Shown: positions 26,576-60,506, counted from the first letter of the stretch. The stretch is DNA of 64,000 bases from an uncultured archaeon (GCA_964409945.1 CAYPFJ010000013.1:1996-65995); one strand, 5' to 3'. Numbers and translations are program-made. The notes: generated by a model from the sequence alone, not told the origin.

Positions 26576-27931
26576 ATGCTGCGCCAAGTTTTTGTACTCC
26601 AAGGAAATGATATTATTTATAGAAGAGTTTATGGAAATGCGTTGAATAGTTCTGAGATTGAGGATATTAGTTTTAAGATTATAAGGGAGGCAAAAAGAAG
26701 TCTTGGTGAAACAATGGGATATTTTGATTTTATAAAATTTAGAGTATCGTATGATGTTGAACTTGAAAATAATTTAATTTTTCTTTTTATAACAGGATTA
26801 ATGGACGATTTTTATAGAGTAATCAAAACTCAGTTGATGAATTTTAAAAATCTATTCTTAAACCGCTTCAGTATTAAATTAAAGGATAATCAATCTCAGG
26901 ATTTAGATTTTAAAGGAATTAATGTAGCTCTTGATGAAATGCATAGAAATTTAAAACCTAAAATCGCAGTAGTAGGTTTTGCAGGTGTTGGTAAAACAAC
27001 TATCAAAAAACTAATAAAAATGGATGAGATTCCGCTTCAACATATTCCGACTATTACGGGGGAAATTGCTACTATTAAAATAGGGAAACTTTTTTTTCAT
27101 TTATTTGATTTTGCTGGATAGGAGCAATTTAAATTTCTTTGGAAAGGCTTTATAAAAGAAAGCGATGCAGTCCTTATTGTTACAGATTCTACACTAAAGA
27201 ATGTTGAGAAAAGCAAATTCTTTTTAGATTTAAAAGCTAAAGAAGTTCCTCATGCTCGGGCAGCTATTATTGGAAATAAGCAAGATTTACTTAATGCATT
27301 GAGTGTACAAGAGATTGAGACTCTCACGGGATTAAAAACTTATCCAATGGTAGCGAATAGAAAGGAAAATCGTAGTAAAATGATTCGAATTATCGCAGAT
27401 ATATTAGATATGAGTACGGAAGATTCTCCGTTATTGGCTGAATTATATAAGAGTACAGAAGTAAGTTATGAAACTTTATTCGGGTTAGAATTAGAATCAA
27501 CTCAAGAAGATTCCTTGATAGTAACAGAAGAACCAGTTCTTTTGAAAACTACTCATATTGAGAATAAAATCGATGTCAGCGATACTAGACGACGTATAGA
27601 TCAAATTCTTTCGGAAACTATTGTAGTAGAACCAACATTCTTTAAAGGAGCGAAAGTAATTGAAGAAAATCTAAAAATTCCTGTTGAGAATGCTTTAGTT
27701 TCTTCTGATTTATATACTGACTTTATGAAGACTAATTCATTTACATTGAATGAGAAATTAGGAATTTTATTTACTGCAATAAATTGTGTTTTTCTTACAG
27801 AAATCAAACCAAAAATATATCCACGATTCAGTTCTTTTTTAAGAAGTTACAAAATGGATGTATTTAACACTAAAGAAATAAATATTATTCGTAAATATTA
27901 TACAAAGATTTTGAAAAATTTGAAGAAATGA
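26576..27931 (+). CDS. Longin/roadblock-like domain + Ras-superfamily small GTPase + C-terminal extension, one reading frame interrupted by an in-frame TAG at 27119..27121
   Basis: G1 is VVGFAGVGKTT and G3 is DFAG-TAG-EQFKFLW. G4 is NKQD, 56 residues after G3, which is the Ras-like spacing. The track ORFs 26576..27121 and 27299..27931 are in the same frame with no other stop between them. Confidence 0.75.
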
Positions 27932-27965
27932 AATTTTGGATAACCTAAGAATTTAAATCTTCAAT

Positions 27966-30017
27966 TTAACGAGTGATATATTTTACTTTAAAAGAACTTA
28001 ATTTGCCATCCTTAACAATTATTTCTCTGTACCCTCCAGCTGTATCAGGATGCTTATAACTCCCTAATCCTAAAGCGGGGGTTTGCACTACAAAAGGTCC
28101 ATTCTCCCTTATACTTTTCTCATCGGTATATATGTCAGAATAATTATCATAATATATTGCTGCGGGGTTTTCAATTTTATTTAACCTAAATGGAGGCGCA
28201 TCATACACACTAGTTTTTTTCTCGGGGTTTTCTAATCTAAATTCCAATGAATCATGAGTATGACCAGCAAGAGTTAAAATACAATAATTTTTACAAAATT
28301 CAATAATTTTTTCCCAATTTGATGAAATTGTTCCATATTTCATATTAAATACTCCATCAATACGTGCTGCTGAAATGGGTTTTCCCAATTTTGTAATTAA
28401 CGATTCTTTAAACTCATTCATCTTTTGTGTAATAAATCGACTTCCTTTTTTTTCAAATATATTAATACTATACTTTTTACCTCCAGTGTTTAATGGAGGC
28501 CCATGTAAAAATAGAAAAGTGTTAGTATCATTTTTAATTACGTTGTTTATCAGATTCTCTAAATAATTTATTTGTTTGAATGAAATTCCAGTAACAGAAG
28601 GATGACCAGTTATTAAATCTCTTACATTTTTAAAAGAATCAGCCCCTGTATTCAATATAATAAACAAGTTATTTCCAAGCATGATAGAAAAGTCCAAAGA
28701 AGAATTAATTTCTGCTAAATACCCTTTTAAAGCTAGGGAGGTTTTTGTTAAAGCTGTAATAGGGGATGCAGAAAATAATTCATTCAATGCAATTGCTTCA
28801 GAGGCATTTAGCCCAATCTTCTTGTACATATCTGCCCATGTGAGATCATAATGAAAAGGTCGATAATCATGATTTCCTAAGGTCGTAAAAATTGGACAAT
28901 TTAATTCTTCACCTCTAATTACTCCTTTAAATTTCTCTTTAGGTGGTATATTCAAGACTGTATTTTTGAAAGTTAACCAATTACTATCCTCGTATTTAAA
29001 TTCGTTCAATTTACGAATTTTCTTAGATAAATTACTTAAAACTGTATAATCAACAATATCTCCCGTTATTACAATGAAATCTAATTCATTCTTAAGCACT
29101 TTCTTATTCATCAGTTTTATAAATCTTCTAAATTGATTATTTGGATTAATTATACGCTTTCTTAAGGGAATTTTCAATTCTGAGAGTATATTTTCCTCAT
29201 TCTTTACTCTCTTTTTAATTTTCAACTTTTTTTTTATAGTCTCAAAAAAATCTTCTACATTCTCTTTAATTGAGGATTCTGTCCATTTTTTAACAATTCC
29301 ATAAATTTTATCATTTCTTTCTGCTAAGTGTAGATCTGTAGCATGAATAAAGGTAAAATCTTCCCATTTTTGCTTGGAAACCACAAGAGAATGATAGTTT
29401 ATTTGGTGATTAGCGCTATGTATATCAAACATAACAAAATTTTGTTCCTTTAGAATTTTCAGGATTTCTTTATTTAAAGTAAATTCGATAGTCACCTTAT
29501 AAAATTTATTTAATTCGCCAAATACTTGATTTTTTACTAAAAATTCTTGTGGATTCAAATCATCTGTCTTAGAGATATTTTGAATTGGGATTATGGGAGA
29601 ATCTTCAACATTAACTACTTTGGGAAAAATAGGATCCCCTCTATGTAATCGTGATTTTAATTCTTTCAGTCGTTCTAAATTTAGATCTAATTTTTTTCCA
29701 GTTTTTAAAATGTCTTCAATAAATTTTTTGTTTTTTTTCCTAGCTCTTTTCTCTCTCCATTTTGAGAACAATCCTTTTGGTTTTTTCACGAAAATTAGTT
29801 TATAAGACCATTTATAATCATATAATGGAATTAAAGATATCTGACTTTGAATGGATTTAGTAAAAATCTCTAAATCATAATTTTCAGCAATAAACAGTAA
29901 ATGAGCTTGAAAATATTTATTTTTTAATTTATTATCAATTTTTAAAATTGATGGAAGTCCCAAGTTTGGACTTATTAAATTTGATTTTCCTATTTTTTCT
30001 AGCTCTGGCGCAGTCAA
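27966..30017 (-). CDS. Calcineurin-like metallophosphoesterase with a long N-terminal region
   Basis: FIHATDLHLAERND, ITGDIVDY, LGNHDYRP, FLHGPP and LAGHTHDS match the metallophosphoesterase motif series D-x-H, GD, GNH, H and GHxH. Confidence 0.85.
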   Translation of the reverse strand: MTAPELEKIGKSNLISPNLGLPSILKIDNKLKNKYFQAHLLFIAENYDLEIFTKSIQSQISLIPLYDYKWSYKLIFVKKPKGLFSKWREKRARKKNKKFIEDILKTGKKLDLNLERLKELKSRLHRGDPIFPKVVNVEDSPIIPIQNISKTDDLNPQEFLVKNQVFGELNKFYKVTIEFTLNKEILKILKEQNFVMFDIHSANHQINYHSLVVSKQKWEDFTFIHATDLHLAERNDKIYGIVKKWTESSIKENVEDFFETIKKKLKIKKRVKNEENILSELKIPLRKRIINPNNQFRRFIKLMNKKVLKNELDFIVITGDIVDYTVLSNLSKKIRKLNEFKYEDSNWLTFKNTVLNIPPKEKFKGVIRGEELNCPIFTTLGNHDYRPFHYDLTWADMYKKIGLNASEAIALNELFSASPITALTKTSLALKGYLAEINSSLDFSIMLGNNLFIILNTGADSFKNVRDLITGHPSVTGISFKQINYLENLINNVIKNDTNTFLFLHGPPLNTGGKKYSINIFEKKGSRFITQKMNEFKESLITKLGKPISAARIDGVFNMKYGTISSNWEKIIEFCKNYCILTLAGHTHDSLEFRLENPEKKTSVYDAPPFRLNKIENPAAIYYDNYSDIYTDEKSIRENGPFVVQTPALGLGSYKHPDTAGGYREIIVKDGKLSSFKVKYITR

Positions 30018-30228
30018 TTTTCAACAACTACTCCATTATCAAGGTTAATAAATGAATTTATTTCAAACTTTTATACTAATATATACTAAACAATTTCGCG
30101 TTAAAAATATGATTAAGTCTCTATTATTTAACAATGGTTAATAGCATACAAATATTTCTAAAATATTTATAAATGCTTCTTTTATCTACTAATATCATCT
30201 TAAATTAAAAAACTAAAATATAAGTCGC

Positions 30229-30501: not shown

Positions 30502-30637
30502 TATTAATTAAACTCTAAAAAAGCAATTATTCATAAAAAAATATTTATAATTACTTTATGAATAAATTAAAATTAAAACCTTTTGATTATTTTTATAGGT
30601 TCATACTTAAATATTCACATGAAAATCAATGATAAAA

Positions 30638-30793: not shown

Positions 30794-30822
30794 GTAATAT
30801 CTAAATTTTTATTTTACCATAC

Positions 30823-30830
30823 TTTTATAT
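30823..30830 (+). promoter_or_regulatory. Candidate archaeal TATA box (TTTTATAT) for the tRNA gene
   Basis: Lies about 26-33 nt upstream of the predicted mature tRNA 5' end, the expected TBP-site distance. Confidence 0.4.
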
Positions 30831-30855: not shown

Positions 30856-30933
30856 AGGCTCGTGGCGAAGCATGGATATCGCGGCAGCCTCCTAAGCTGA
30901 CGATCGGGGGTTCAAATCCCCCCGGGCCTGCCA
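30856..30933 (+). tRNA. tRNA-Arg (anticodon CCU), CCA encoded, no intron
   Basis: Manual cloverleaf fold. The acceptor AGGCTCG pairs with CGGGCCT, and the D arm is GCGA/TCGC with a GG-containing loop. The anticodon loop is CT-CCT-AA, and the T arm is GGGGG-TTCAAAT-CCCCC. The discriminator is G, followed by CCA and then a T5 run. There is one G-A mismatch at the top of the anticodon stem. Confidence 0.85.
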
Positions 30934-30980: not shown

Positions 30981-32927
30981 ATGAAAAAAAAATATGTTAC
31001 TAACCTATCTTATTTAAAAGTAATAGTGAAACCACGACTTCCAAAGCTCTTACATTCATTAAACAAAATTATAATGAGACATGGTTCTGTTCCATTAGTG
31101 AAGATTTTAGGGATAGTTTTAGGTTTAGGGTACGCTAAGAACAGTGTTAAAAGGTATCCTGAATGTATTGTAAAATTGAAAGATGGAACAAGATTAGCAA
31201 CAGATATCTATGTTCCAAAAAAGGTGTATAAGAAAAAGAACAAATGTCCAACAATATTAGTACGATTACCATATTGGAAGGATAGTATGAGTATTTTAGG
31301 CTATGCATATGCCGCTTTTGGATTCGTAACGATAATTCAAGATATACGAGGAACAGGTCACTCAAATGGATTCAATTATTATTTATTCACAGAAAGAGAT
31401 GACGGAATAGATACTTTAAAATGGATTTCTAAACAATATTGGTACAATGGGAAAATAGGTATGGGAGGAGCAAGTTATTTTGGTATAACTCAACTTGCAT
31501 TATCGTGGGATAATAATTATTTAACTTGTATTGCGCCAGGCATTACTTCAACCTTGAATTTATGGAAAAACAATGGAGGTCTCGAAATCCATGCTCTTAC
31601 AACTTCTATTTATAGAATAATGGTTAATATTTCGTCACACAGAGAGGCTCCTGAGGTAGATAATTTAACAAATTTAATGTATGAGAGATATTTAAATCCT
31701 CAATACGCATTATATAATGATCCCATTAAAAAGAAAAGCGGAATTAGATTATCTCATCTAAAAGGGAAATCTATTCAAGAAGTTCAAGATCTTTTAGTAT
31801 CATATTATAATGTTAACAACTTTGATCATTCAAAACGTAATCTCAAGATTTATTTTAAATTTTTAAATGATTTCTTAATTACACGAGGTTTAGATAAGGA
31901 CACATACAAAATGTCTGGATTTTTAGAAATGGATAGTAAAAAGTTCTCGCAACCTGCTTTTATGCTAGCTGGATGGCAAGATATGTTTTTTGAAAAACAA
32001 TTAGAGGACTTTATCGAAATTAAAAATAACGCTACTGGTGATGCTAGAAAATATTCAAAACTGCTTATAGGGTCGTGGGCACATGGTGCGAGTGGTCATC
32101 CTGAAAGCCGCATTAGAAATGCTGGAATGTTAAGATTTTATAAAGAATTTTTAAATCTTGCCTGGAACCGTCATTGGTTGATGGGAGATATGAATGCTTT
32201 TCCTGATATAAATAAACCTTCTATAAAGTATTGGGTTATAGGGAAAAATATTTGGAGATACACAGAGACGTGGCCCCCTGAAAATATTGATTATCAAAAA
32301 TTGTATATTCATTCTGTAAGAGGAGCAAATAGTCTAAAAGGAGATGGTGTATTAGATTTCAAAGAACCAATTAATGAATCAGAGGATACATATACTTTTA
32401 ATCCTATGGATCCTGTTATCACAAAAGGAGGTAGGAACTTAGGTATTTTAAAAGGAGCTCAAAATCAAAAAGATGCCGAAAAACGCAAGGATGTCTTAAT
32501 CTTCTCAACTAAACCTTTAAAAGAAGGATTAGAAATAACTGGCGCTGTAAGAATGATACTTTTTGCTTCCTCATCGGCGAAAGATACTGATTTCATGATC
32601 AAATTAGTAGACGTTTATCCTCGAGGAAAAGGGATAAATATTTTAGATGCTGGAATCAGGGCAAGATTTAGAAATAATGAAGATATTCCTTCCCTTATTG
32701 AGCCAAGGAAAGTCTATGAGTATGAGATAGAATTGGGAAATACATCTAATTATTTTAGGAAAGGACATCAAATACGAATAGAAATAACCTCAAGTAATTT
32801 TCCGCGATTTGATATAAATTCAAATTTAGGAGGAGAAGGTCAACCAGGAGATTACATCATAGCTGAACAGAAAATCTATCATACACGAGAATTTCCAAGT
32901 CATCTTCTAATTCCTGTTTTAAAATAG
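30981..32927 (+). CDS. CocE/NonD family hydrolase (X-Pro dipeptidyl-peptidase S15-like)
   Basis: LATDIYVPKK, ILVRLPYWKD, QDIRGTGHSNG, DGIDTLKWIS and GMGGASYFG (nucleophile elbow), plus the C-terminal beta-sandwich segment ITSSNFPRFD. Confidence 0.85.
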   Translation: MKKKYVTNLSYLKVIVKPRLPKLLHSLNKIIMRHGSVPLVKILGIVLGLGYAKNSVKRYPECIVKLKDGTRLATDIYVPKKVYKKKNKCPTILVRLPYWKDSMSILGYAYAAFGFVTIIQDIRGTGHSNGFNYYLFTERDDGIDTLKWISKQYWYNGKIGMGGASYFGITQLALSWDNNYLTCIAPGITSTLNLWKNNGGLEIHALTTSIYRIMVNISSHREAPEVDNLTNLMYERYLNPQYALYNDPIKKKSGIRLSHLKGKSIQEVQDLLVSYYNVNNFDHSKRNLKIYFKFLNDFLITRGLDKDTYKMSGFLEMDSKKFSQPAFMLAGWQDMFFEKQLEDFIEIKNNATGDARKYSKLLIGSWAHGASGHPESRIRNAGMLRFYKEFLNLAWNRHWLMGDMNAFPDINKPSIKYWVIGKNIWRYTETWPPENIDYQKLYIHSVRGANSLKGDGVLDFKEPINESEDTYTFNPMDPVITKGGRNLGILKGAQNQKDAEKRKDVLIFSTKPLKEGLEITGAVRMILFASSSAKDTDFMIKLVDVYPRGKGINILDAGIRARFRNNEDIPSLIEPRKVYEYEIELGNTSNYFRKGHQIRIEITSSNFPRFDINSNLGGEGQPGDYIIAEQKIYHTREFPSHLLIPVLK

Positions 32928-37641: not shown

Positions 37642-38220
37642 TCAAACTAATTCTTCTTTTTTAATCCAATCTCTTCTAAACAACCCGAATTGGTGGAAAT
37701 CAACATAGTTTCCATCGACATACATATCTTCTTTTAAAAGTCCTTCTTGTTGAAAGCCTAATTTTTCAGCTGCCCTAAGTAATCTTTTATTTGGATTGAT
37801 AATAGTTGCATATATCTTATGGAAATTTAATTCTGTAAATCCATAATTAATTAACATTTTGGCAGCTTCACCTATAGAACCTTTTCCCCAATAATCTGGC
37901 TCTCCGATTAAAGCACCTATAAAGGCATTACGATTTATCCAATTGATACGATTAAACCCGATACTACCGATAGGGCACTTATCATTTTTATGGTAGATCG
38001 TAAAATATACTCCCTCTTTTACACCATGTTCCGATGGAGGTTCGAACCATTTTTTAACTTCTTCAGGAGTTCTCGGCATAACGTGGTGAGCAAAATGACA
38101 TACTTCTGAATTATTATGCCATTTACAATATAAAGTAATCCATTTAGAATTTGGGGCTAATAAATCTATTCTTTCTCCCTCAATAAAAGGGAAAATTTGG
38201 ATCTCTTCTTTCTCCCTCAA
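37642..38220 (-). CDS. GNAT N-acetyltransferase, RimJ/RimL-like (array copy 1); 5' end remodelled by a 37-bp duplication, TTG start in the ORF track
   Basis: FIEGERIDLLAP...GEPDYWGKGSIGEAAKMLINYGF...NPNKRLLRAAEKLGFQQEG has the Acetyltransf_3-type layout. Confidence 0.8.
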   Translation of the reverse strand: MREKEEIQIFPFIEGERIDLLAPNSKWITLYCKWHNNSEVCHFAHHVMPRTPEEVKKWFEPPSEHGVKEGVYFTIYHKNDKCPIGSIGFNRINWINRNAFIGALIGEPDYWGKGSIGEAAKMLINYGFTELNFHKIYATIINPNKRLLRAAEKLGFQQEGLLKEDMYVDGNYVDFHQFGLFRRDWIKKEELV

Positions 38221-38251
38221 TAAAAGGGAAAATTTGGATCTCTTCTTTCTC
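38169..38251. repeat. Direct tandem duplication, 37-bp unit x 2.2 copies, spanning the 5' end of GNAT copy 1
   Basis: 38169..38205 is identical to 38206..38242, and 9 further nt repeat again. Confidence 0.95.
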
Positions 38252-38360
38252 TTCTTCCGTCATTTAAAACTACCAGAATATTTTTAGAAATTAATATAAT
38301 TAATATATATATTTAAGAGATTGAATAGATTAAAATCTTAGGAATTAAATTTGACTAGTT

Positions 38361-38942
38361 TTAATCATTTGATTTTTCTTTTCTTTTTATCCAATCTTCC
38401 TTTAATAAACTATAAGTTTTTACTCCAAGGTGTTTACCGTCAAGATAGAATTCATCTTCTTTTATGCCTTCAAACTGAAAGCCACATTTTTCAGCAACAC
38501 TCCAAGACCCAATGTTTTCCACACAAACTCCACCGTGTAATTTATTGAGATTTAATTCATTGAAAGCGTATTCATTAAGTAATTCTGTAGCCTCTGTAGC
38601 AATTTTTTTACCCCAATAATCAGGTTCTCCAATTCGTATAAAAGCATTTGCCCATCCGTTAATCCAATCTATCCAACCCACGCCTACATGACCAATAGGC
38701 TTTTTATCCTTATTATGCCAGATTTCGAAAGATACAAAATAAGGCATTTCCCAATCTCGTGGTTCAAACCACTTTTTAACATTCTCTACTCTACTTGGTA
38801 TAATATTCCTCGCATATTTACGTACTTCAGGATCATTGAGCCATTTAACATACAAGTTTATATTTTCTAAATTTTGAGGTATAAAACTTATAGTTTCTCC
38901 TTCAATAAAGACAGGAACCTCTTTATTTTCCTTTTCTTCCAT
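38361..38942 (-). CDS. GNAT N-acetyltransferase, RimJ/RimL-like (array copy 2)
   Basis: VPVFIEGETISFIP, LNDPEVRKYARN, IDWINGWANAFIRIGEPDYWGK, SWSVAEKCGFQFEG. Confidence 0.85.
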   Translation of the reverse strand: MEEKENKEVPVFIEGETISFIPQNLENINLYVKWLNDPEVRKYARNIIPSRVENVKKWFEPRDWEMPYFVSFEIWHNKDKKPIGHVGVGWIDWINGWANAFIRIGEPDYWGKKIATEATELLNEYAFNELNLNKLHGGVCVENIGSWSVAEKCGFQFEGIKEDEFYLDGKHLGVKTYSLLKEDWIKRKEKSND

Positions 38943-38993
38943 TATTATTGTTAAATCGTAATTTTTTTGGTTTTATATTTAATTTTAATTAAT

Positions 38994-39572
38994 TTATTTC
39001 TTTGAATTTAACCAATCTTCCTTTGATAAACGATACAGCTTTCCATTAATATATTTTCCATCAATAAATAAATCATTTTTCTCTAATCCCCGATACTTAA
39101 ATCCAATTTTCTCAGCAACGCTCCATGAACTTATGTTTTCAACAGCTGCTCCTGCTTGTAATATATTAAGATTCAATTCATTAAATGCATATTCTATAAT
39201 CATTCTTGCACCTTCTGTAGCTATATCTTTTCCCCAATATTCTGGTTCTCCAATGAAAAGAAATATATTTGCCCATCCATTAACCCAGTCAATCCCTGAC
39301 AAGCCTACTTCACCTATTGGTCTTTTATCTTTTTTATGCCAAAGTTCAAAAGCAATACCTCTGGGGATTCTCCCCTCTTGGGATTCAAACCATTTTTTAA
39401 TATCGTCACTAGTAACTGGCATTACCCATCGAGCAAATTTTCTAACTTTTGGGTGATTTAACCATTTTAAATATAAATTGATATGTTCTGAATTTGGAGG
39501 AATAAGACTAATGATTTTTCCATCGATAAAAACTGGAACTTCTTTATCTTCTATTACTTCTTTCTCTCTCAT
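38994..39572 (-). CDS. GNAT N-acetyltransferase, RimJ/RimL-like (array copy 3)
   Basis: Same motif set (IDWVNGWANIFLFIGEPEYWGK). I prefer the ATG at 39572, which forms an ATGA start/stop overlap with copy 4, over the track start at 39590. Confidence 0.85.
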   Translation of the reverse strand: MREKEVIEDKEVPVFIDGKIISLIPPNSEHINLYLKWLNHPKVRKFARWVMPVTSDDIKKWFESQEGRIPRGIAFELWHKKDKRPIGEVGLSGIDWVNGWANIFLFIGEPEYWGKDIATEGARMIIEYAFNELNLNILQAGAAVENISSWSVAEKIGFKYRGLEKNDLFIDGKYINGKLYRLSKEDWLNSKK

Positions 39573-40141
39573 AACTTTCTTTCTCTCCACTCATCTTTTA
39601 ATAGATAGTATGTTTTAACATCAACATATTCTCCATCTACAAAAAGCTCATCCTTTCTGATTCCTTCAAAAGTAAATCCTCTTTTTTCAGCTACTGTCCA
39701 AGACCCAATATTAGCAACTATCGCTCCAGCATGTAATTTATGAAGATTTAGTTCACTAAAAGCATATTCAATGATCAGATCTGTAACTTCAGTGGCAATA
39801 TTTTTATTCCAATAATCAGGTTCGCCAATAGTCATCCCTACATTCGCCCAACCATTTACCCAATCTATACCAGTTAAGAAAGTATGACCAACTGGCTTAT
39901 TATCCATTTTATGCCAAATTTCAAGTACAATAAAATTCCGAACTCTTCCTTCTTGAGGTTCAAACCATCCTTTCGCGTCATTTACTGTTATGGGTATCAT
40001 ATTACGAGCATATTTACGGACTTTTGGGTCATTTATCCATTTTACATATAAATTTACTCGTTCTAAGCTCTGAGGTATTAAATAGACATTTTGCCCTTCA
40101 ATAAACAAAGGAATTTCTTGTTTTTCCATGCTGTTTATCAC
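39569..40141 (-). CDS. GNAT N-acetyltransferase, RimJ/RimL-like (array copy 4)
   Basis: IPLFIEGQNVYLIP, IDWVNGWANVGMTIGEPDYWNK, SWTVAEKRGFTFEG. Confidence 0.85.
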   Translation of the reverse strand: MINSMEKQEIPLFIEGQNVYLIPQSLERVNLYVKWINDPKVRKYARNMIPITVNDAKGWFEPQEGRVRNFIVLEIWHKMDNKPVGHTFLTGIDWVNGWANVGMTIGEPDYWNKNIATEVTDLIIEYAFSELNLHKLHAGAIVANIGSWTVAEKRGFTFEGIRKDELFVDGEYVDVKTYYLLKDEWRERKL

Positions 40142-40160
40142 AATTTAATGAGATTATTAT

Positions 40161-40763
40161 TTAATCCTTTTTCAATTCTCTAGATTTTATCCAATCTTCT
40201 TTTGACAACCGAAATATTTTTGCATCAACATATTTTCCATCAACATACATTTCATGCTTTCTTATTCCATCAAGTACAAACCCAATCTTCCCTGCTACAG
40301 ACCATGAGCCAATATTATCAACAGCAACTCCTCCGTGTATTTTATTTAGTTTCAACTCATTAAATGCATATTCCATGAGCAATTCAGTAGCTTCCGTCCC
40401 AATATCTTTATTCCAATAATTTGGTTCTCCAATTTGAAGAAAAGCATTTGCCCACCCATTTACCCAATCTATATGGCTTAATCCAATTTGACCTATTGGT
40501 TTCTTATCTTCTTTATGCCAAACGTCTAATGATACAAAATCGCTAATTTCTTCACTTCTACTTTCTGACTTTTTTTTCTGTTCATCTATTGTCCTTGGTA
40601 TTATATTACGAGCATATTTACGGACTTTAGGATGATTCTTCCATTTTACATATAAATTCGCATATTTGGAGTTTCGAGGGCAAAGATCTATTCTCGATCC
40701 TCGAATAAATGGAAATTCTTCCGTTTCCTCATTTTGTTTAGATTCTTCTTCTTTCTTCGCCAC
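40161..40763 (-). CDS. GNAT N-acetyltransferase, RimJ/RimL-like (array copy 5)
   Basis: FPFIRGSRIDLCP, IDWVNGWANAFLQIGEPNYWNK, SWSVAGKIGFVLDG. Confidence 0.85.
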   Translation of the reverse strand: MAKKEEESKQNEETEEFPFIRGSRIDLCPRNSKYANLYVKWKNHPKVRKYARNIIPRTIDEQKKKSESRSEEISDFVSLDVWHKEDKKPIGQIGLSHIDWVNGWANAFLQIGEPNYWNKDIGTEATELLMEYAFNELKLNKIHGGVAVDNIGSWSVAGKIGFVLDGIRKHEMYVDGKYVDAKIFRLSKEDWIKSRELKKD

Positions 40764-40799
40764 TAAATTAACCTCTTAATTTTAAAAATTAGGGAAACA

Positions 40800-41357
40800 T
40801 TATTTCATCCAATCGTCTTTAAATATTGAATATTCGAGTACATCCATATGCTCTCCATCAATATAAACTTCTTTCTTAAGTGTAATTTCAAGCTTAAAAC
40901 CTAATTTCTCTGCTATTTGTATCGAAGCTTTATTTAGTGCAAACAAACGTGCCGTGATTTTGTGTAAGTTTAACTCTTTATAAGCATAATCTAAAACCAA
41001 CTTTCCTACTTCAGTTCCAATGTGTTGTTTCCAATATTTTGGATCAATTATATAAGATATATGTGCATTGCGAGTAAACCATTGAATTCTAAATAAATTT
41101 GCCAAACCTATTGGTTTTTTATCTTTTTTATGCCATATCTCGAAGAAGATATCCTCTTTTACAGCCTCTTTCTTTGGTTCGAACATTTTCTTTACCTCAT
41201 CAATTGTTTGAGGCATATTAAATTTTGTAAATTTCCTAGTTTCTGGATGATTCATCCAACCAGCATATAGGTTAACGTGATCTGCATTTGCTACACAAAG
41301 AGAGACAGTTTCTCCTTCAACAAATGGTAACACTATTTCCTCTTTTCCTTCTGACAT
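40800..41357 (-). CDS. GNAT N-acetyltransferase, RimJ/RimL-like (array copy 6, the most divergent together with copy 1)
   Basis: LPFVEGETVSLCV, IQWFTRNAHISYIIDPKYWKQ, ASIQIAEKLGFKLE. Confidence 0.85.
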   Translation of the reverse strand: MSEGKEEIVLPFVEGETVSLCVANADHVNLYAGWMNHPETRKFTKFNMPQTIDEVKKMFEPKKEAVKEDIFFEIWHKKDKKPIGLANLFRIQWFTRNAHISYIIDPKYWKQHIGTEVGKLVLDYAYKELNLHKITARLFALNKASIQIAEKLGFKLEITLKKEVYIDGEHMDVLEYSIFKDDWMK

Positions 41358-43366: not shown

Positions 43367-43939
43367 TCAGAGTGTTTTACGCATTACGTAATAATCTTTA
43401 AATTCTTTATAAATAGAAAATTCCTCAGATGCGTATAATGAAAATGGTCCTCGATAACTATGAGCATCTGATAATTCTTCTCCTTTCCTTGGGTATACTT
43501 CAATTAAATCATAACCTTTATCCTTCGAGCTAGAGCAAGCATAATTCAGAAGTTGTTTGGCTACACCTTGTTTTCTATATGAAGGAGCGACTACAAAGCA
43601 AATAAGTGAAGCGATTTTAGCCTCTGATTCTTCTTCATAAGGGATTTTTGCATAATTTTCCTTAATATTAATGTTACACCATCCAATTGGTTTTCCATCT
43701 AAATATGCCATATATCCATTCATCTTTTCAGAAAGGATAAGCTCTTTTGAAGCTTTTCTATTTTGTTCTGCAGTTCTTTTATTAAATTGTTTATTGGTTC
43801 CAGCAAAATGATAAAAATGACAGTAACAAATAGCCCAATCAGGATTATCAGAAAATGCAACTTTATCAAAAAAATATAGAAAATCTTCAAGAAGATCAGG
43901 AGTTAAAGACTTTATCTGAATATCCAATTTTGTAGTCAC
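43367..43939 (-). CDS. GNAT family N-acetyltransferase (unrelated to the six-copy array)
   Basis: The acetyl-CoA motif A is VVAPSYRKQGVAKQLL. Confidence 0.8.
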   Translation of the reverse strand: MTTKLDIQIKSLTPDLLEDFLYFFDKVAFSDNPDWAICYCHFYHFAGTNKQFNKRTAEQNRKASKELILSEKMNGYMAYLDGKPIGWCNINIKENYAKIPYEEESEAKIASLICFVVAPSYRKQGVAKQLLNYACSSSKDKGYDLIEVYPRKGEELSDAHSYRGPFSLYASEEFSIYKEFKDYYVMRKTL

Positions 43940-43966: not shown

Positions 43967-45526
43967 TTAATATTTTTCATCTATTGCAGACAACATAACT
44001 TCTAATTGGTCGAATATATCTAAACGAAAGTCAAGCCCTATTCTAAAGAATAAGAGATCTACTACTTTTTTATCAATACGTTCATCAATATTTAAATGAT
44101 CAATTATTTCTGACCAATTAATACTCTCAGAAGCTCGTATTCCAATTAAAATTACAACATTCTTTTTCCCATTTTCAACAATTTTTAGAATCATTTCTCT
44201 AAAATTTGGATCAATTTGCTCTTTGGAACGCACATCAAAAACACAAAAGATTCCATCAGAACTGGAAATATCATCAAGAGCAGAATATTCATGTTGTTTT
44301 AAAATCATCCCATTCGTATATTGGTAAACCTGTTCATCATCATAATCTCTTATCAATGACTTTTCTCCTAATTTGCTTATACTAGTAATTATTTGTAACC
44401 CAGGACTCCAAACCGAGCTTTCAGTTATAAATGATAAAGTGAAAACAATTTTTTTCTTCAGTATAGAGTTAATTATATTAAATAATAATTCACTACGCCT
44501 TTCATCTTCAATTTCTTTACTCTTCATTACATAGTGATATGAAATTAAGTTAAATGCATCCTCAACATTACTTCCAGTTAACGCACTTGTCTCAATATAT
44601 GACAACTTAATTTTTTCGCTTTCTGAAAGGTTGTTCGCTAATTTAGCACCTTCTTGATAATAGACTTTTCTATCTTCAAGCAAATCAGTCTTGTTTCCAA
44701 CTATTACAATTGGTATGTCTTCTCCTAATGTAAAGAGCCTTAGTTCCTCATACCAACTTTTAACATTTTCGAAAGATTCACGATTAGCAAGATCAAATAC
44801 GATGAAAGCTGCTTGAGCGCCTAAATAATAGATTTTTCGAAATCTTTTGAAATATTTCTGAGCACCAAGATCATACAAACTTACGCCTATTTTGTTTCCA
44901 AAAAATTCAAACTCATGAGACAAGATATTAATGCCAATAGTTGCTCTATAATCTGTTGTATATCTTTTTTCAACAAATCTACGGATGATTGAAGTTTTTC
45001 CAACTTCGTGATCTCCCAAAATTACGAATTTAAAACGATATTCCCCATCTAGACCTAACTCCATCTGGTATAACTGATTTTTCAATCGTTCAACGTTGCC
45101 TGCTTCATATTCAAAATTTGGAATTTCTACTTGAATTAAATCGCCCTCTTCAGCTGTGAGAATTTGAGCCGTTTTTTCTGCAAGAAAAAATCCGTAGGGA
45201 GAAATTTTTTCAATTGAAGCCATACTTTCTAAGACCAAACTTATAATTCTTTCTTCATCAACAGAAATAAATAGTAGACGATGATCTTCGGTATCGAAAC
45301 TTGCAGTACCAAATTTTTGAAATTCAAATTCACTACGCATTCTTTCTAATATGGGATTGATTATTGACGTTAAAACTGAAACGAGTTCAATGTCAACATC
45401 TTTTCTTTTTTCTCCCGCAATAACTAATCCTTCATTATCAGAAACAATAACAGATTCTACTTCTCTATTAGATTCGAGAAACTTATTAAATAATTCTCTA
45501 AAGAGCTTATTTTTCTGTATCGTCAA
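43967..45526 (-). CDS. Roadblock/LC7 (MglB-like) domain + Rab/Ras-like small GTPase + C-terminal degenerate GTPase-like domain
   Basis: The Roadblock part is VESVIVSDNEGLVIAGEKRKDVDIELVSVLTSIINPILERM. G1 is ILGDHEVGKTS, G3 is YDLGAQ, G4 is GNKTD and G5 is ETSA. The C-terminal segment GIFCVFDVRSKEQ...VVILIGIRAS mimics the G3-G4 strands without a P-loop. Confidence 0.85.
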   Translation of the reverse strand: MTIQKNKLFRELFNKFLESNREVESVIVSDNEGLVIAGEKRKDVDIELVSVLTSIINPILERMRSEFEFQKFGTASFDTEDHRLLFISVDEERIISLVLESMASIEKISPYGFFLAEKTAQILTAEEGDLIQVEIPNFEYEAGNVERLKNQLYQMELGLDGEYRFKFVILGDHEVGKTSIIRRFVEKRYTTDYRATIGINILSHEFEFFGNKIGVSLYDLGAQKYFKRFRKIYYLGAQAAFIVFDLANRESFENVKSWYEELRLFTLGEDIPIVIVGNKTDLLEDRKVYYQEGAKLANNLSESEKIKLSYIETSALTGSNVEDAFNLISYHYVMKSKEIEDERRSELLFNIINSILKKKIVFTLSFITESSVWSPGLQIITSISKLGEKSLIRDYDDEQVYQYTNGMILKQHEYSALDDISSSDGIFCVFDVRSKEQIDPNFREMILKIVENGKKNVVILIGIRASESINWSEIIDHLNIDERIDKKVVDLLFFRIGLDFRLDIFDQLEVMLSAIDEKY

Positions 45527-45678
45527 GAATTTCTCTCCCTTCTTAAATTATAACCTAATAATCTTATTCTTATCTATATAATAAATAATTATCATTTGAA
45601 TTTTTATTATTATTGATTATTAATAATCACTGATATTCTTTTATTGCATGAATTCAAGATACTTATTATTAGTAAGGC

Positions 45679-47265
45679 TTAAAGATACTTAATTGTGTTT
45701 AACATAACCTTTAATTGATCGTAAATTTCTAGTCTATATTCAAGTCCTATTTTGAAGAATAATAATGATACCATCTTTTTTTCCAATAATTCGTTAACAC
45801 TAAAGTCTTCCATGATTACTGACCAGTCGCTTTTATCTGACACCCTAATTCCTATCAATACCACTTTATTCTCTCCAATTTCGTTTATAATTTTTGCAAC
45901 AACATTTTTCCAATCTTGGATTATATGTTCTTTTTCTCGCGCATCGAAAATACAAAATACTCCATCAGAACTAGTAACATCAAAATTGTTGTAAAGAAAA
46001 TTTTTTACTATTACTCCATTTGAAAATTTATAGAATTTCTCATCCCTTTCATCCTTTATTTTCTCACATTCGTTTGAAATATTGATTTCAGAGAGTATCT
46101 GAAGCCCAGGGCTCCAAAATTCATTTTCTGATATAACTGTTAAGGTTAATAATGAGCTTTGATCTTCTACTTCTTGTTTTCTTTTCATTATAATCAAATT
46201 AAGTTCTTCTAATAGATCTTGCTTGACAATATCCTCTTCTTCTTCTTTACTTTTAGAGATATAATGAAATGCTATTAAAGTAAAGGCATCTTCCACATTT
46301 TCCCCCGATAAAGCACTAGTTTCAATATAGGAGATTTTAATGTTAGGTTTTTGGGATAAGCTATTTACTAGTTGTACACCATCTTGATATTCTACCACTC
46401 GTTGTTCCTTCAAATCACATTTATTTCCAATAATTATGATAGGAATTTCCCTACCACTAATAAATTCTTCCAATTCAGCATACCATTGTTTTACATTCTC
46501 ATAGGACTCTTTCTTTGTTAAATCAAATACAATAAATGCTGCTTGGGTACCTAAATAATAAGTTTGGCGAAAGCGTTTGAAATAAACTTGAGCTCCTACG
46601 TCCCACAGACTGTAAATGATTTCATTTCCAAAAAATTCTATAGAATGGGATAAAATGTTTAATCCTATTGTAGCACGATAATCATGAGAAAATCTATTTT
46701 CTACAAAACGTCGTACTAAAGATGTTTTACCTACTTCATGATCTCCAATGATTACAAATTTAAATCTATATTTTCCTCCTTGATCTAATCTCATTTGATA
46801 AATTTGATTCTTCACCCTATCATTCCGCGATATTTCATCAGTTTCATATTCAAAATTTGGAATTGCAAGTTGGATCTTATCACCCTCTTCTGCGTTAAGA
46901 ATTTGTACAGATTTTTCTGCTAAGAGATATGCATATGGACTAGCTTTATCGATCGACGCTAAATTATTTAATACGACACTAAGAGTTCTATGCTCATCTA
47001 AAGAAATAAATAGTAATCTGTAGAATTCTGTATCGAAGCTTGCAGTACCAAATTTTTTGAACATAAATTCATCACGAATTCTCTCAACAATCGGATTTAT
47101 GATAGAAGTTAAAACTGAGACGATTTCCATATCTACATCGCTTCTTTTTTCACCTGCAATAACTAAACCCTGTTGGTCACTTACAATTACAGCTTCTACA
47201 TCTTTATTTACTTCTAAGAATTGGTTGAATAATTCGATAAAGAGTCTATTCCTATTTATTGACAT
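45679..47265 (-). CDS. Roadblock/LC7 domain + Rab/Ras-like small GTPase + degenerate GTPase-like domain (tandem paralog)
   Basis: VEAVIVSDQQGLVIAGEKRSDVDMEIVSVLTSIINPIVERI. G1 is IIGDHEVGKTS, G3 is WDVGAQ, G4 is GNKCD and G5 is ETSA. The architecture matches the neighbour. Confidence 0.85.
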   Translation of the reverse strand: MSINRNRLFIELFNQFLEVNKDVEAVIVSDQQGLVIAGEKRSDVDMEIVSVLTSIINPIVERIRDEFMFKKFGTASFDTEFYRLLFISLDEHRTLSVVLNNLASIDKASPYAYLLAEKSVQILNAEEGDKIQLAIPNFEYETDEISRNDRVKNQIYQMRLDQGGKYRFKFVIIGDHEVGKTSLVRRFVENRFSHDYRATIGLNILSHSIEFFGNEIIYSLWDVGAQVYFKRFRQTYYLGTQAAFIVFDLTKKESYENVKQWYAELEEFISGREIPIIIIGNKCDLKEQRVVEYQDGVQLVNSLSQKPNIKISYIETSALSGENVEDAFTLIAFHYISKSKEEEEDIVKQDLLEELNLIIMKRKQEVEDQSSLLTLTVISENEFWSPGLQILSEINISNECEKIKDERDEKFYKFSNGVIVKNFLYNNFDVTSSDGVFCIFDAREKEHIIQDWKNVVAKIINEIGENKVVLIGIRVSDKSDWSVIMEDFSVNELLEKKMVSLLFFKIGLEYRLEIYDQLKVMLNTIKYL

Positions 47266-51011: not shown

Positions 51012-51332
51012 TTATTCAGGAACCTTAAATCCAGCAATTCCAGCTGCTTCTTCAAATGTATACCAAACATCTACCGAGTATTCACAATTTTCAATATTAA
51101 CAAATTCATAGAACTATTTTCTAAAATAAGCTAATGCTTGTTCAAGTTTTCCTGGTTTTATTTCCCAGATGCTTTTAACTATTACACCATTTTCAGTTGT
51201 CGTTACAGGGGCACAAAGTTGTTCTGCGACATTTTCATCAGTTTTATATTTAGGTGATATTTGAAGATATTTTTTTACAACCTCATTTTGTATATGGCTT
51301 GGATATTTAATGGTTGCAATTATGTATGGCAT
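51012..51332 (-). CDS. Small hypothetical protein (family member B); 72 codons, in-frame TAG (51114..51116), then 33 more homologous codons
   Basis: The track ORF 51114..51332 ends in TAG. The same frame continues FYEFVNIENCEYSVDVWYTFEEAAGIAGFKVPE to a TAA at 51012, and this tail aligns with the C-terminus of the neighbouring paralog. Confidence 0.55.
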
Positions 51333-51356: not shown

Positions 51357-51698
51357 TTATACTTCTGGTGGTGGTGTCATGCCTAATATCTTATAGGCTT
51401 CAGTAAAATCCATGAATATATCAGTTTTATATCTTAAACCATCAATTTTGGATGCTAAGAACAGATTTTGTTTAGTGTTGATTTGTAAGGCTTCTTTTTC
51501 TTTTCCTTTCATTATTTCACCAATACCCTAAGCCAGTATATATCCATTCTCATCGGAAGAAATGGCTATACATAAGTTTTTCTCTACGGTTTTATCGGGA
51601 GGATTATCTTTAAGCCAATCTACAAAACTCTTAGCTATTTTATTTGCTTGATCTGGTGGAAACCAAACTCTGTTAAAAAGAATTGTAATTTTCGACAC
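51357..51698 (-). CDS. Small hypothetical protein (family member A); GTG start, in-frame TAG at 51528..51530
   Basis: My translation is (M)SKITILFNRVWFPPDQANKIAKSFVDWLKDNPPDKTVEKNLCIAISSDENGYILA-TAG-GIGEIMKGKEKEALQINTKQNLFLASKIDGLRYKTDIFMDFTEAYKILGMTPPPEV. It is collinear with member B on both sides of the TAG, and was missed by the ORF track. Confidence 0.55.
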
Positions 51699-56664: not shown

Positions 56665-56700
56665 AATCTTTTTTTTTTTAATCGTTTAAACTGTAAGTTA

Positions 56701-57168
56701 TTACATTCCCATTTTTAATTGTTTTAAAAGTTCGATTAAAGATTCAGTTAATTTGTAGTTTTTAAGCTGATCAAAAGGTACAAATCTCGCATCAAGGGCG
56801 TCATCTGCTGCCTTAGGTGGCTGATTTAAATCCCCATCTATTTGTTCAACAAAATAATTGATTAACACATAATGATATTCAATTTTACCTGTTTTATCAT
56901 ACATAATTTTGTCAATAATGCCAGCCAATTTTGAAACCTTCACTTTAAACCCTGTTTCTTCAAAAGCTTCTCTCTCTGCTGCTACTTCCACCTTTTCTCC
57001 AAGATCTAAATGTCCTCCAGGAATGCTCCAATACCCTGCATCAGGATTATATTTTCTTTTTACTAATAATAGATGATTATCACGTGTTAATAAAACACCT
57101 ACTCCTATATGTGGCCTCACTGGATATTTTCGTGTATCAAAAGCTGTTAATTTTTCTTTATCTACCAT
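56701..57168 (-). CDS. NUDIX hydrolase
   Basis: The Nudix box is GGHLDLGEKVEVAAEREAFEETGF. Confidence 0.9.
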   Translation of the reverse strand: MVDKEKLTAFDTRKYPVRPHIGVGVLLTRDNHLLLVKRKYNPDAGYWSIPGGHLDLGEKVEVAAEREAFEETGFKVKVSKLAGIIDKIMYDKTGKIEYHYVLINYFVEQIDGDLNQPPKAADDALDARFVPFDQLKNYKLTESLIELLKQLKMGM

Positions 57169-57392
57169 ATTTCAAAATTTGATAGCACATTTTAGGTTAT
57201 AAAACGAGAGAACTATTATAAAGATTCATTAATCATCATATTTATAGAAAACTTGAGATAGTCATATTCTTTAAAAGTTAAAAGCAGTTTAGACTCCAGA
57301 AATAATTTTAATCGAATGAAAAATATAAATAGGAAAATGATTAGTTATATCTCAAGGTTGGGAATAATCTTTTTTTCCAAATTAAAAACAAT

Positions 57393-57620
57393 ATGGCGAA
57401 AATGGAAATGAAAAATATAAGATTGAATTCTATAAAAGATAAAATTTTACTGAAAACGATTCTTATTTTAGTATTTTTTACTTCTGCTGGGGTAAAGAAC
57501 ATAAATTTAACTTTAACATCTAAAGATAGCTTAAATAATTCTATTTTATTTGCCTCTGAAAATGTTCATATTGATTTTAGAATATCAATACATAAGAATA
57601 TCCAAGATGATAAAAAATAA
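57393..57620 (+). CDS. Possible small membrane protein
   Basis: 75-aa ORF with one hydrophobic segment (ILLKTILILVFFTSAGV). No other support. Confidence 0.25.
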   Translation: MAKMEMKNIRLNSIKDKILLKTILILVFFTSAGVKNINLTLTSKDSLNNSILFASENVHIDFRISIHKNIQDDKK

Positions 57621-57813
57621 TTAATAATTATTTTTTCTACAATTTTTTTTGAATAGATTAATCCAATACTCTAAATTTCTATAGCCATTCACATCTATTC
57701 TTGAATAAATTGACCATTATGTAAACAAGACATTATATAGGTGAGTTTCATTTAATTCTAATATTACATAATATCTAAATAGAGAAATCACAATAAAAGT
57801 AAGTTAGAACATC

Positions 57814-59358
57814 ATGAAAAAAATAAATTTAAAAGCTAAATTAGCTCTAGGGTTAACAATCATTCTTTTGTTCCTTCCATTGATTTCAAGTTTCACTATT
57901 TTGAAAGATAATCCTCGAATCAATATAGATGTACCAAAAAACATCAAGAGTTCTCAAGCAGAAATATTTGATGGTATGGTCATAAATTATACATTTTATA
58001 TTTCGGGAACCCAACATAATTCAGGATTCAGCTATGAATACGATTCTGGTAATAATTTTAATGTATTGAGTTGGTTTAGCGGTGTGGGACTTAGTAGATG
58101 GGTTGAGGATGAAACTACTCGCCAAATTAGTATGTCAAGTGGACCAATTACCTTTACTGATGGATCACATGCCCCACTTTGGATTTTTACAAATGTTAGT
58201 CTTTACGACCTTGTACCAATTGTAGTAGATGGCGAGGGAGACCATATATTTAATATAACGAAACAAAAAATTTTTAATATTCCGGGATTTGGATCTGTTG
58301 AAGTCTGGCAGTTGGAAGATTTGACTTTACCGGGAGGAATTGCATGGTATGAAAAGAGTACTGGAATTTTAATTAAAGGATACTTTATTTATGGAATTGG
58401 CGATTATATATTTGAATTTTTTAATACTAATGCTGTTTTTAGCAATGTCCCACCCGTTTCTGGATTATTTGATGGATTATATATGGATTATATAGTGTAC
58501 GGAGAGACTACAAGTCTCCCTTTAAAAATTCAGTATACAGGATATTCAGTTAATATATACAATTGCACTTCAGATTTATCTCCGATAGGTGTTGATAACT
58601 GGACTGATGATACCACAACTAGAATTATGAGCAATGACGCAGGTACTGGAATGAGTTTCTTTCCAGGCTTATATACTCCATTTTGGATATTTACTAACGT
58701 TTCATTAGGATCTAATGTACCTATTGCTGTTGATGCAGAAGGAGATCATATTTTCGAGGTTAAAAAGAGCGTTAATTCAGAGTTTCCTGGATTTGGACTT
58801 ATTAGCATTTGGGAACTTGAAGATCTAGATGGTTTCGGGGGATTAGTATGGTATGAAAAGAATTCAGGAATTTTATTAAATGGTACATTTTTTTGGGGAT
58901 CTGGAATGGGTAATTATTCTTTTATGTTGCAAGATACTAATGCTGTATTTGGATATCTGCGTCCATATTCTTTTACTCTCTCAACAAACGCAACCAATCC
59001 AGATACCGACGGAATTTTTGATTTAGAATGGACAAACTCAGAATCTGCGAAGAATTATTCTATCTATGAATACTCACACTATATTACTGAATTTAATGGG
59101 AGTTTAACATCCATTGCATTGGAAACCACAAATATGACCAAGCATCTAAGTGGATATAACACGGGAGAATATTATTTTGCAGCTGTCGCTAAAAATAATT
59201 ATGGTATAACTCTCTCTAACTGTATTAAGATTACGGTAACCATCCCCTCAACAGGGGGAGGGATCCCAGGATATAGTATATTCTTTATAATATTAGCGGG
59301 ATTAAGCATTTCTATGATAATACTCAAAAAATCAAAAGCAATCCGTACAATAAAATAA
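57814..59358 (+). CDS. Cell-surface protein with a signal peptide, two copies of the unnamed module shared with the S8 protease, an FN3-like module and a C-terminal IPGY + TM + basic tail
   Basis: The signal-like N-terminus is LALGLTIILLFLPLISS. The repeats contain PLWIFTNVSL...VDGEGDHIF...VEVWQLEDL...GGIAWYEKSTGIL and PFWIFTNVSL...VDAEGDHIF...ISIWELEDL...GGLVWYEKNSGIL. The C-terminus is IPGYSIFFIILAGLSISMIILKKSK. Confidence 0.85.
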   Translation: MKKINLKAKLALGLTIILLFLPLISSFTILKDNPRINIDVPKNIKSSQAEIFDGMVINYTFYISGTQHNSGFSYEYDSGNNFNVLSWFSGVGLSRWVEDETTRQISMSSGPITFTDGSHAPLWIFTNVSLYDLVPIVVDGEGDHIFNITKQKIFNIPGFGSVEVWQLEDLTLPGGIAWYEKSTGILIKGYFIYGIGDYIFEFFNTNAVFSNVPPVSGLFDGLYMDYIVYGETTSLPLKIQYTGYSVNIYNCTSDLSPIGVDNWTDDTTTRIMSNDAGTGMSFFPGLYTPFWIFTNVSLGSNVPIAVDAEGDHIFEVKKSVNSEFPGFGLISIWELEDLDGFGGLVWYEKNSGILLNGTFFWGSGMGNYSFMLQDTNAVFGYLRPYSFTLSTNATNPDTDGIFDLEWTNSESAKNYSIYEYSHYITEFNGSLTSIALETTNMTKHLSGYNTGEYYFAAVAKNNYGITLSNCIKITVTIPSTGGGIPGYSIFFIILAGLSISMIILKKSKAIRTIK

Positions 59359-59402
59359 TCTCAATTAAATCTAATAACTTTTTTTTCTTTTATTAATTTT
59401 TA

Positions 59403-59933
59403 TCAAAACTTTTTATTTTTAAATAGGTTTAAAGAATAATCAACAATTTTTTGGGCATCATTGGCTCCTTTCCATTCCTTAAATTTAACCCATTTATGTG
59501 GCTCTAATCTTTTATATGTCTCATAGAATTCTTGAATTTCTTTAAGTTTGTGGCCATGTATATCTTGAATATCATTATATCCACTAAATCTCGGATCATT
59601 AACTATAACAGAAAGAATTTTTGGGTCATCTCCATGTTCATCTTCGATAATTAACGCACCTATAACTCGCACTTTTACAACACACCCCACTTCGAGTGGT
59701 TCATAACTCAATACCATTATATCTAAAGGATCATCATCATCTGACCAAGTTTGAGGGATAAAACCATACTCAACAGGAAAAATAACAGAGGAGGGAATAA
59801 CTCTATCTAATACAAAAACTTCCCATTCAGAGTTATACTCATACTTATCTCTTGAACCACTAATGACTTCGATAACTGCATTTAAAGTAATTGGCGGATT
59901 ATCTCCAGAAGGAACATCTTTCCATAGATTCAT
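59403..59933 (-). CDS. ppa: Inorganic pyrophosphatase, family I
   Basis: VIEVISGSRDKYEY, YGFIPQTWSDDDDPLDIMVL and DDPKIL. Confidence 0.93.
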   Translation of the reverse strand: MNLWKDVPSGDNPPITLNAVIEVISGSRDKYEYNSEWEVFVLDRVIPSSVIFPVEYGFIPQTWSDDDDPLDIMVLSYEPLEVGCVVKVRVIGALIIEDEHGDDPKILSVIVNDPRFSGYNDIQDIHGHKLKEIQEFYETYKRLEPHKWVKFKEWKGANDAQKIVDYSLNLFKNKKF

Positions 59934-60014
59934 ACATATCTAAATTTAAATAAATTTTTAAAATATTAGTTCTTAATTGCCAAAATATTTATAAATTCTA
60001 ATATAAGATGATCT

Positions 60015-60506
60015 ATGGTTCGTCCTTGGTATTGGCCCAAAGAGGGTATTCCTGAAAAAACTGTGCCATTTACTTAGATTGTGAAGGAAAGAATTGCAGC
60101 GTCGTGGTGGCCAGATACACTCTTATTTGAGCAATATAAAAAGGAAGGTATAAAAGCTATTATAAATTGTTCGGAATTCGATTATCGAAAAGATTTCCCA
60201 AATGAGTTTCACTATTTTCACATAAACATACCTGATTTTGGAACTCCAACAGATTCTCAAATAGAAAAATTCTTAGAGATTACACGTAAGTGTGGAGCGA
60301 ACAGAGATCCAATTGTTGTACATTGCGTAGCAGGTTGTGGAAGAACAGGTATAATGATCGTAGCATGGGCTGCTTTTAATGGTTATATTCCAAATGGATT
60401 GGATCCAGTAAAATGGATTCGAAAACTCAGACCGTGTTCATTAGAAACAAAGGAACAAATGGAATTAGCGCGAAAAATAGCTAAAAAGTATCGAAAATAT
60501 CATTAA
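60015..60506 (+). CDS. Cys-based protein tyrosine/dual-specificity phosphatase; track ORF starts at GTG 60081, but an ATG at 60015 is in frame and separated only by a TAG (60075..60077)
   Basis: The active site is VHCVAGCGRTG (HCx5R). The upstream in-frame segment is MVRPWYWPKEGIPEKTVPFT-TAG-IVKERIAASWWP. Confidence 0.8.

Follow-up and report, generated by a model that had tools for sequence, protein, structure and literature searches.

In-frame TAG codons in four genes of a near-clonal Lokiarchaeon: candidate recent amber nonsense alleles and an all-amber pattern

Four interrupted genes and their alleles in the population

A 64,000-nucleotide (nt) stretch of DNA from an uncultured archaeon (GCA_964409945.1, CAYPFJ010000013.1:1996-65995), hereafter the window, carries four genes whose reading frames are each interrupted by a single in-frame TAG (amber) codon. 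The window sits on a 73-kb Joint Genome Institute (JGI) metagenome contig (Ga0307444_1000024, sample 3300031360) with a G+C content of about 30% over the analysed stretch, and the matches of its proteins are Asgard archaea named Promethearchaeota or Lokiarchaeota. The interrupted genes are the following:

26576..27931, + strand: longin/roadblock-Arf-like small GTPase gene, 451 codons, with Pfam Arf/Roc/Ras matches; in-frame TAG at 27119-27121
51012..51332, - strand: small paralog B, 106 codons; in-frame TAG at 51114-51116
51357..51698, - strand: small paralog A, 113 codons; in-frame TAG at 51528-51530
60015..60506, + strand: Cys-based protein phosphatase (DSP/PTP) gene, 163 codons, with matches to Pfam PTP/DSP families; in-frame TAG at 60075-60077

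The initial annotation of the window had placed TAGs at these four sites, and all of them were confirmed. It had also claimed that coding-like sequence continues on both sides of each TAG, which agrees with the full-length uninterrupted homologues found for all four genes, and that neither TAA nor TGA interrupts a frame in the same manner. Indeed, when all six frames were scanned for lone stops between open stretches, no comparable case appeared. The N-terminus of a CoA-transferase gene, broken by old inserts bearing TAA and TGA, represents a different phenomenon. The TAA at 43969 was considered as a possible ochre codon splitting one gene and was rejected, since it separates two complete genes, the upstream one aligning end to end with a paralog. 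In the flanking ~10 kb beyond the window, no further interrupted genes were detected.

The GTPase is built from an Arf-like domain with a longin/roadblock-like part at the N-terminus; 181 codons precede its TAG, 270 come after it, and the frame is otherwise open. The TAG takes the place of the catalytic Gln in the G3 motif DxxGQ, an invariant position that is Gln in 120/120 homologues and in 86/86 tblastn comparisons. At this site L022, the nearest relative (JGI Ga0315553, sample 3300031652; 95.8% nt identity), has CAG and the more distant L021 has CAA, and TAG was carried by all ten contigs recovered from other samples. Downstream of the TAG, seven non-synonymous and six synonymous changes were assigned to the window branch, against seven and two on the L022 branch; because there is no extra decay past the TAG relative to the intact orthologue, the lesion is taken to be young. 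Two adjacent roadblock-Ras GTPase paralogs encoded elsewhere in the window (43967..47265, - strand; 519 and 528 amino acids, 58% identical) are both intact, in contrast to the amber-interrupted Arf-like GTPase.

In the phosphatase, the TAG replaces an invariant Trp (120/120 homologues), and both alleles circulate, with TGG in four contigs (L011-L014) and TAG in six (L015-L020). Over the 10.4 kb that TGG contig L011 shares with the window, the TAG base of the phosphatase is the sole difference. Small paralogs A and B are adjacent members of an Asgard-specific family of ~110 residues without a Pfam match. The TAG position of paralog A is Tyr in 89 of 120 homologues, including 23 of the 24 nearest among those listed, and the TAG was present in 7/7 contigs carrying the gene. 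For paralog B, the nearest cluster representative (P0241) has Tyr at the TAG position, and the site is polymorphic: L015, L291-L294 and L296 carry TAT (Tyr), and L295 shares the TAG of the window. Four contigs of 3.6-5.5 kb match the window everywhere except at this codon.

Each TAG is thus one base away from its ancestral sense codon, and the sense codon or residue is present in the closest relatives. Alignment to orthologs, suggested as a check in the initial annotation, gave Gln, Trp, Tyr and Tyr as the residues at the TAGs of the GTPase, the phosphatase, paralog B and paralog A. The same annotation had raised assembly or consensus error as a source of the TAGs, and such an artefact is almost certainly not the cause: identical TAGs were assembled independently in 10, 7, 7 and 2 contigs, which derive from different JGI samples and Sequence Read Archive (SRA) runs, the latter assembled in Logan, and the alternative alleles are clean single-base differences. 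Because independent assemblies from many samples agree, the TAGs are not errors, and both the bases and the polymorphism are genuine.

The window sequence was found again at 99.98-100% identity in contigs from JGI samples and from SRA runs (Logan, independent assembly), about ten of each. Among those with the same strain are JGI samples 3300031257, 3300031364 and 3300031698 and runs SRR8557363-65, SRR8556609, SRR9700687/88 and SRR9710542/561/702, and the recurrence of such nearly identical contigs across samples denotes a near-clonal natural population. Apart from the amber sites, the isolated single-nucleotide polymorphisms (SNPs) in this population comprise six synonymous and one non-synonymous, a ratio that indicates purifying selection at work. 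The haplotypes observed at the phosphatase and paralog B sites form a chain, namely (TGG,TAT), (TAG,TAT) and (TAG,TAG). Two clusters of differences were also seen. In the amidohydrolase gene (window 62923..63013), 14 mostly synonymous differences within 90 nt separate the window from Logan contig L016, which is identical elsewhere, and this cluster resembles a short stretch acquired by recombination with a diverged strain. In an LRR protein gene (8222..8302), four clustered differences from L025, three of them non-synonymous, reflect either repeat-driven variation or mis-assembly.

Taken as a whole, these data suggest that the four TAGs could be very recent single-nucleotide amber nonsense alleles, under the standard code, in a near-clonal AT-rich Lokiarchaeon (Promethearchaeota), an explanation to which we give about an even chance. 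The changes would be CAG to TAG at Gln of the GTPase, TGG to TAG at Trp of the phosphatase, TAT to TAG at Tyr of paralog B, and TAT or TAC to TAG at Tyr of paralog A, whose ancestral Tyr codon (TAT or TAC) was not seen directly. Probably both Tyr changes are third-position T>G transversions, as at least the one in paralog B is. The ribosome would stop at the four TAGs, and the four genes would therefore be young loss-of-function alleles, that is, nascent pseudogenes. On this explanation, the GTPase and paralog A ambers, present in every contig seen, would already be fixed, those of the phosphatase and paralog B would still be segregating against the intact allele, and the ambers would have gathered stepwise in one lineage, from (TGG,TAT) through (TAG,TAT) to (TAG,TAG). 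The proposal in the initial annotation of very young pseudogenes arising by C-to-T/G-to-A mutation survives in its first half, with TGG and TAT still segregating in strains otherwise 99.98-100% identical and CAG present in the nearest relative, and fails in its second; a single deamination-type process was discarded, as only two of the changes are C>T or G>A and that of paralog B is a T>G transversion.

TAG as a terminator and the search for a decoding tRNA

TAG works as a terminator in this organism. As first estimated (about seven of roughly 50 genes), 7 of 49 genes in the window end in TAG, and TAA is by far the commonest terminator (TAA 35, TGA 7, TAG 7, to which the internal TAG of the GTPase adds one more). 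The TAG share of terminators, 14-16% here against 11% in 83 related loci, is not depleted, and two TAG stops precede 25-28 codons of junk-like, non-coding-looking sequence. Two of the TAG-terminated genes and the sole tRNA gene of the window are listed here:

30856..30933, + strand: tRNA-Arg(CCT), detected by ARAGORN and Rfam
30981..32927, + strand: peptidase S15 (CocE/NonD) gene ending in TAG; 4 codons, then TAA
47454..48041, + strand: RING/TPR gene ending in TAG; 28-codon non-coding-looking tail to the next stop

In the peptidase S15 gene, the TAG stop and the tail behind it are conserved in the related species L021. The initial annotation had pointed to an in-frame TAA shortly after TAG in four genes, and the cases themselves are correct (1, 2, 4 and 3 codons in the aminotransferase, catalase, CocE/NonD hydrolase and esterase genes, respectively). 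No enrichment accompanies them: a second stop lies within four codons in 4/7 TAG genes versus 13/42 TAA/TGA genes (Fisher P=0.22), so that "backup" TAA codons, being no commoner after TAG than after TAA/TGA, were dropped as evidence of read-through. Programmed stop-codon read-through was likewise dropped, since no stimulatory RNA structure was found 3' of the four TAGs (folding z 0.05 to 1.14, 100 nt from each) and the contexts differ, the base 3' of the TAGs being G, A, G and T, with no conserved context.

These results bear directly on recoding, which the initial annotation had offered as of pyrrolysine (Pyl) type or due to a suppressor tRNA. Pyl and any other reassignment to a single amino acid did not stand, the TAGs replacing Gln, Trp, Tyr and Tyr in an organism that terminates normally at TAG; a generic suppressor tRNA may be encoded elsewhere in the genome. 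A full reassignment of TAG to one amino acid, such as Gln as in code 15 and recoded phages, was suggested by the GTPase site, where the TAG aligns with an invariant Gln, but the remaining sites, with their Trp and Tyr, rule it out. Further evidence against a changed code comes from the seven genes that terminate at TAG ahead of non-coding-like tails, one of these stops being conserved in a related species; we regard such a code as having next to no chance of being correct. The replacement of three different residues excludes TAG as one amino acid, be it Gln or pyrrolysine.

Decoding of TAG as pyrrolysine by tRNA-Pyl and PylRS, as in Methanosarcina or Asgard Sifarchaeia, would fit a TAG-specific pattern, and Pyl is known in one Asgard lineage (PMC9723677). 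Nevertheless, it is very improbable here: the TAGs stand at Gln, Trp and Tyr positions, the genes concerned encode a GTPase, a phosphatase and small proteins and none is a methylamine methyltransferase gene (mtmB/mtbB/mttB), conspecific strains carry sense alleles one base away, and the window has no pyl genes. Within the Asgard archaea, Pyl has been described as limited to one family and the Pyl cluster as absent from Lokiarchaeia (PMC9723677; bioRxiv 10.1101/2024.09.30.615893), while the class Sifarchaeia has Pyl (PMC9723677). The check for tRNA-CUA and pyl genes that had been advised, run on the window, was negative: neither ARAGORN nor Rfam detected a tRNA-CUA in the window, and no pyl genes were present among the Pfam annotations of the window and its flanks. 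ARAGORN found no tRNA-CUA in ~700 kb of related loci either, and its runs on ~95 fetched loci were negative.

The search was extended with a suppressor-tRNA pattern, CTCTARA-N12-13-GGTTCAAATCC, a narrow one that misses intron-containing tRNAs and other loop variants. Among GTDB representative genomes it gave 92 matches, with no Asgard genome among the 80 listed, and the archaeal matches checked were not tRNA-CUA; among IMG/VR viral contigs it gave 88 matches, none from the same samples among the 80 listed. All of these tRNA searches have low power, and the population's own genome is in neither collection. In this context, some metagenome-assembled genomes (MAGs) of Lokiarchaeia and Thorarchaeia are reported to carry orphan tRNA(CUA) genes, of unknown role, but no Pyl genes (PMC9723677), and UAG is used ambiguously, as stop and as sense, in Pyl-encoding methanogens (PMC12626013).

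A separate observation concerns tRNA genes on contig L141 (JGI Ga0315549_1001654), possibly from the same sample series, judged by contig name alone. Two arrays (32..442 and 5222..6325) hold 14 divergent tRNA genes, including Tyr, Gln, Trp and Ile-TAT, and there is no CUA anticodon among the 14. The arrays adjoin Arf-like GTPase genes, the contig has 27% G+C, and the arrays may belong to a mobile element or virus of a Lokiarchaeon.

The all-amber pattern, lesion density and neighbouring genes

Several findings weigh against plain nonsense alleles. The initial annotation had argued that nonsense mutations in such AT-rich DNA should mostly yield TAA, and codon usage bears this out: among one-step nonsense mutations in the window, ~50% TAA, 28% TGA and 22% TAG are expected (TAG range 21-30%). 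Stop types therefore do not follow mutational opportunity, which predicts TAA > TGA > TAG where 4/4 TAG were observed, with P = 0.002-0.008 (0.02 if the residues hit are taken as given), values that are nominally significant but post hoc. Furthermore, three kinds of base change (C>T, G>A and T>G) produced the ambers, so no single mutational bias explains the pattern, and ~74 kb yielded neither a frameshift nor a TAA/TGA lesion of comparable age. Both of the window's only two departures from most other contigs (~45 kb compared) create TAG, which about 1.2% of random point mutations would do. All this happened in a population where purifying selection is still operating, almost all isolated SNPs being synonymous.

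The density of lesions points in the same direction. As a control, all open reading frames (ORFs) were compared by tblastn with all loci across 80 related Lokiarchaeal loci and three more (~700 kb), and conserved off-frame "shadow" ORFs and matches in 5' untranslated regions were filtered out. The metagenome scan had yielded loci of related species and none of this population. The only clean single mid-gene stop that the filtered comparison returned was that of the window's GTPase. With 4 of ~54 genes interrupted here versus 1 of 481 testable control ORFs, the difference is marked (Fisher P=4e-4), for control loci that are not fully independent of one another. The single interrupted control ORF carries TAA, TAA and TGA, not TAG. 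It is a metallophosphatase orthologue in a strain ~86% related (L123, JGI Ga0307378_10020819), in which the three stops fall inside ten codons (3008..3029) and the remainder is 92% identical; the stops reflect either several hits in one local lesion or faulty assembly.

Within this window the bias toward amber is genuine, and the young-pseudogene explanation does not cover it. If the four TAGs are ordinary nonsense alleles, the pattern would have to be a small-sample coincidence; since the window was chosen for its TAGs and all these figures are post hoc, it may be just that.

A different account, which we consider tentatively and rate clearly below plain nonsense alleles, is an amber-specific tolerance: UAG would be partly read through, now or recently, by an orphan tRNA-CUA charged by a normal synthetase or owing to weak recognition of UAG by aRF1. 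The ambers would then be hypomorphs that purifying selection lets pass, whereas it would remove alleles with TAA, TGA or a frameshift. In a variant of this proposal, the suppressor has since been lost, and the TGG and TAT alleles would be selected revertants. Tolerance would suit the amber-only alleles seen in spite of three mutation types, a density far above that of relatives whose sole interrupted gene carries TAA/TGA, and the concentration of polymorphism at amber sites on a mostly synonymous background. It is also in line with the orphan tRNA(CUA) reported without Pyl in some Lokiarchaeia/Thorarchaeia MAGs (PMC9723677) and with the ambiguous UAG use documented in Pyl-encoding methanogens (PMC12626013), and a Tyr-accepting tRNA-CUA would render two of the four changes silent. 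On the other hand, the window, the ~700 kb of related loci and the narrow GTDB/IMG/VR pattern scan yielded no tRNA-CUA, TAG terminators are neither depleted nor specially backed up (two have junk tails of 25-28 codons), and an invariant Gln and an invariant Trp cannot both be restored by one inserted amino acid. Moreover, tolerance alone leaves the dominance of ambers among the newest mutations unaccounted for. Its boldest form, namely that a Pyl-lacking Lokiarchaeon reads UAG ambiguously, through an orphan and possibly Tyr-accepting tRNA-CUA or a weak aRF1, so that ambers persist or set low-output gene states, is speculative and, in our view, slightly more doubtful still.

Among the neighbouring genes, the family III CoA-transferase gene (window 17276..18530, + strand; 709..1962 in L021) has its first ~80 residues encoded 5' of the called ORF. 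This N-terminal part (17276..17470) is broken by a ~33-nt insert with TAA and a ~31-nt frame-shifting insert with TGA, and once both inserts are removed the N-terminus is canonical and exactly as long as expected. The inserts are shared with the related species (~89% nt identity), which carries one more frameshift, and the gene body is under purifying selection, with a ratio of non-synonymous to synonymous rates (dN/dS) of 0.12. No intron-like folding and no other copies of the inserts were found; they may represent an old N-terminal truncation or small intervening sequences.

Two further groups of paralogs were noted. Six tandem GNAT acetyltransferase paralogs (37642..41357, - strand) encode proteins of ~190 amino acids with 40-60% mutual identity, and a seventh GNAT gene (43367..43939) has a different GNAT domain match and no BLASTP match to the six. 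The products of 7045..7305 and 11526..11873 (both + strand), ~4 kb apart, are 82% identical over 73 residues; the former has a Pfam cold-shock-domain match, none is on record for the latter, and the pair flanks LRR, FUR and catalase genes.

Significance and comparison with known systems

If the four TAGs are plain nonsense alleles, they are a warning against reading in-frame TAGs in metagenomic Asgard contigs as pyrrolysine or a new code, and the window would offer a snapshot of gene-by-gene loss in a near-clonal Lokiarchaeon sampled from nature, with a small GTPase of the "eukaryote-like" set among the genes affected. Should the bias toward amber extend across the genome, natural suppression of amber codons in a Pyl-less archaeon would be indicated. 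Such suppression would supply a role for the orphan tRNA(CUA) genes of Loki- and Thorarchaeia, and an ambiguous UAG would represent the living ambiguous intermediate stage proposed for stop-codon reassignment, that is, an early or transient phase in the capture of a stop codon, in the archaea most closely related to eukaryotes.

Amber nonsense mutations and young pseudogenes are familiar from classical bacterial genetics. The alleles described here resemble ordinary amber mutants in their one-base changes (CAG, TGG or TAT to TAG), in the intact alleles still circulating, in their uninterrupted homologues and in the lack of further lesions. They differ from ordinary nonsense mutants in being all amber where ochre and opal should dominate, in a density ~35-fold above that of related genomes, and in having been added one after another amid almost only synonymous variation.

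Reassignment of TAG to Gln is known from translation table 15 and from recoded phages. One of the four TAGs studied here stands at a Gln; the other three do not, and TAG ends normal genes in this organism.

With Pyl-encoding archaea, which include Methanosarcina (PMC12626013), Sifarchaeia (PMC9723677) and "Pyl code" archaea (bioRxiv 10.1101/2024.09.30.615893), the population shares the involvement of a TAG that is yet still a terminator. Unlike in those archaea, the TAGs here replace Gln, Trp and Tyr, lie in non-methyltransferase genes and are polymorphic with sense codons, and no Pyl machinery is known in Lokiarchaeia. Finally, unlike in the MAGs reported to hold orphan tRNA(CUA) genes (PMC9723677), no tRNA-CUA was found in the sequence searched here; those MAGs belong to the same class of organisms, and a tRNA of this kind could provide an amber-specific filter.

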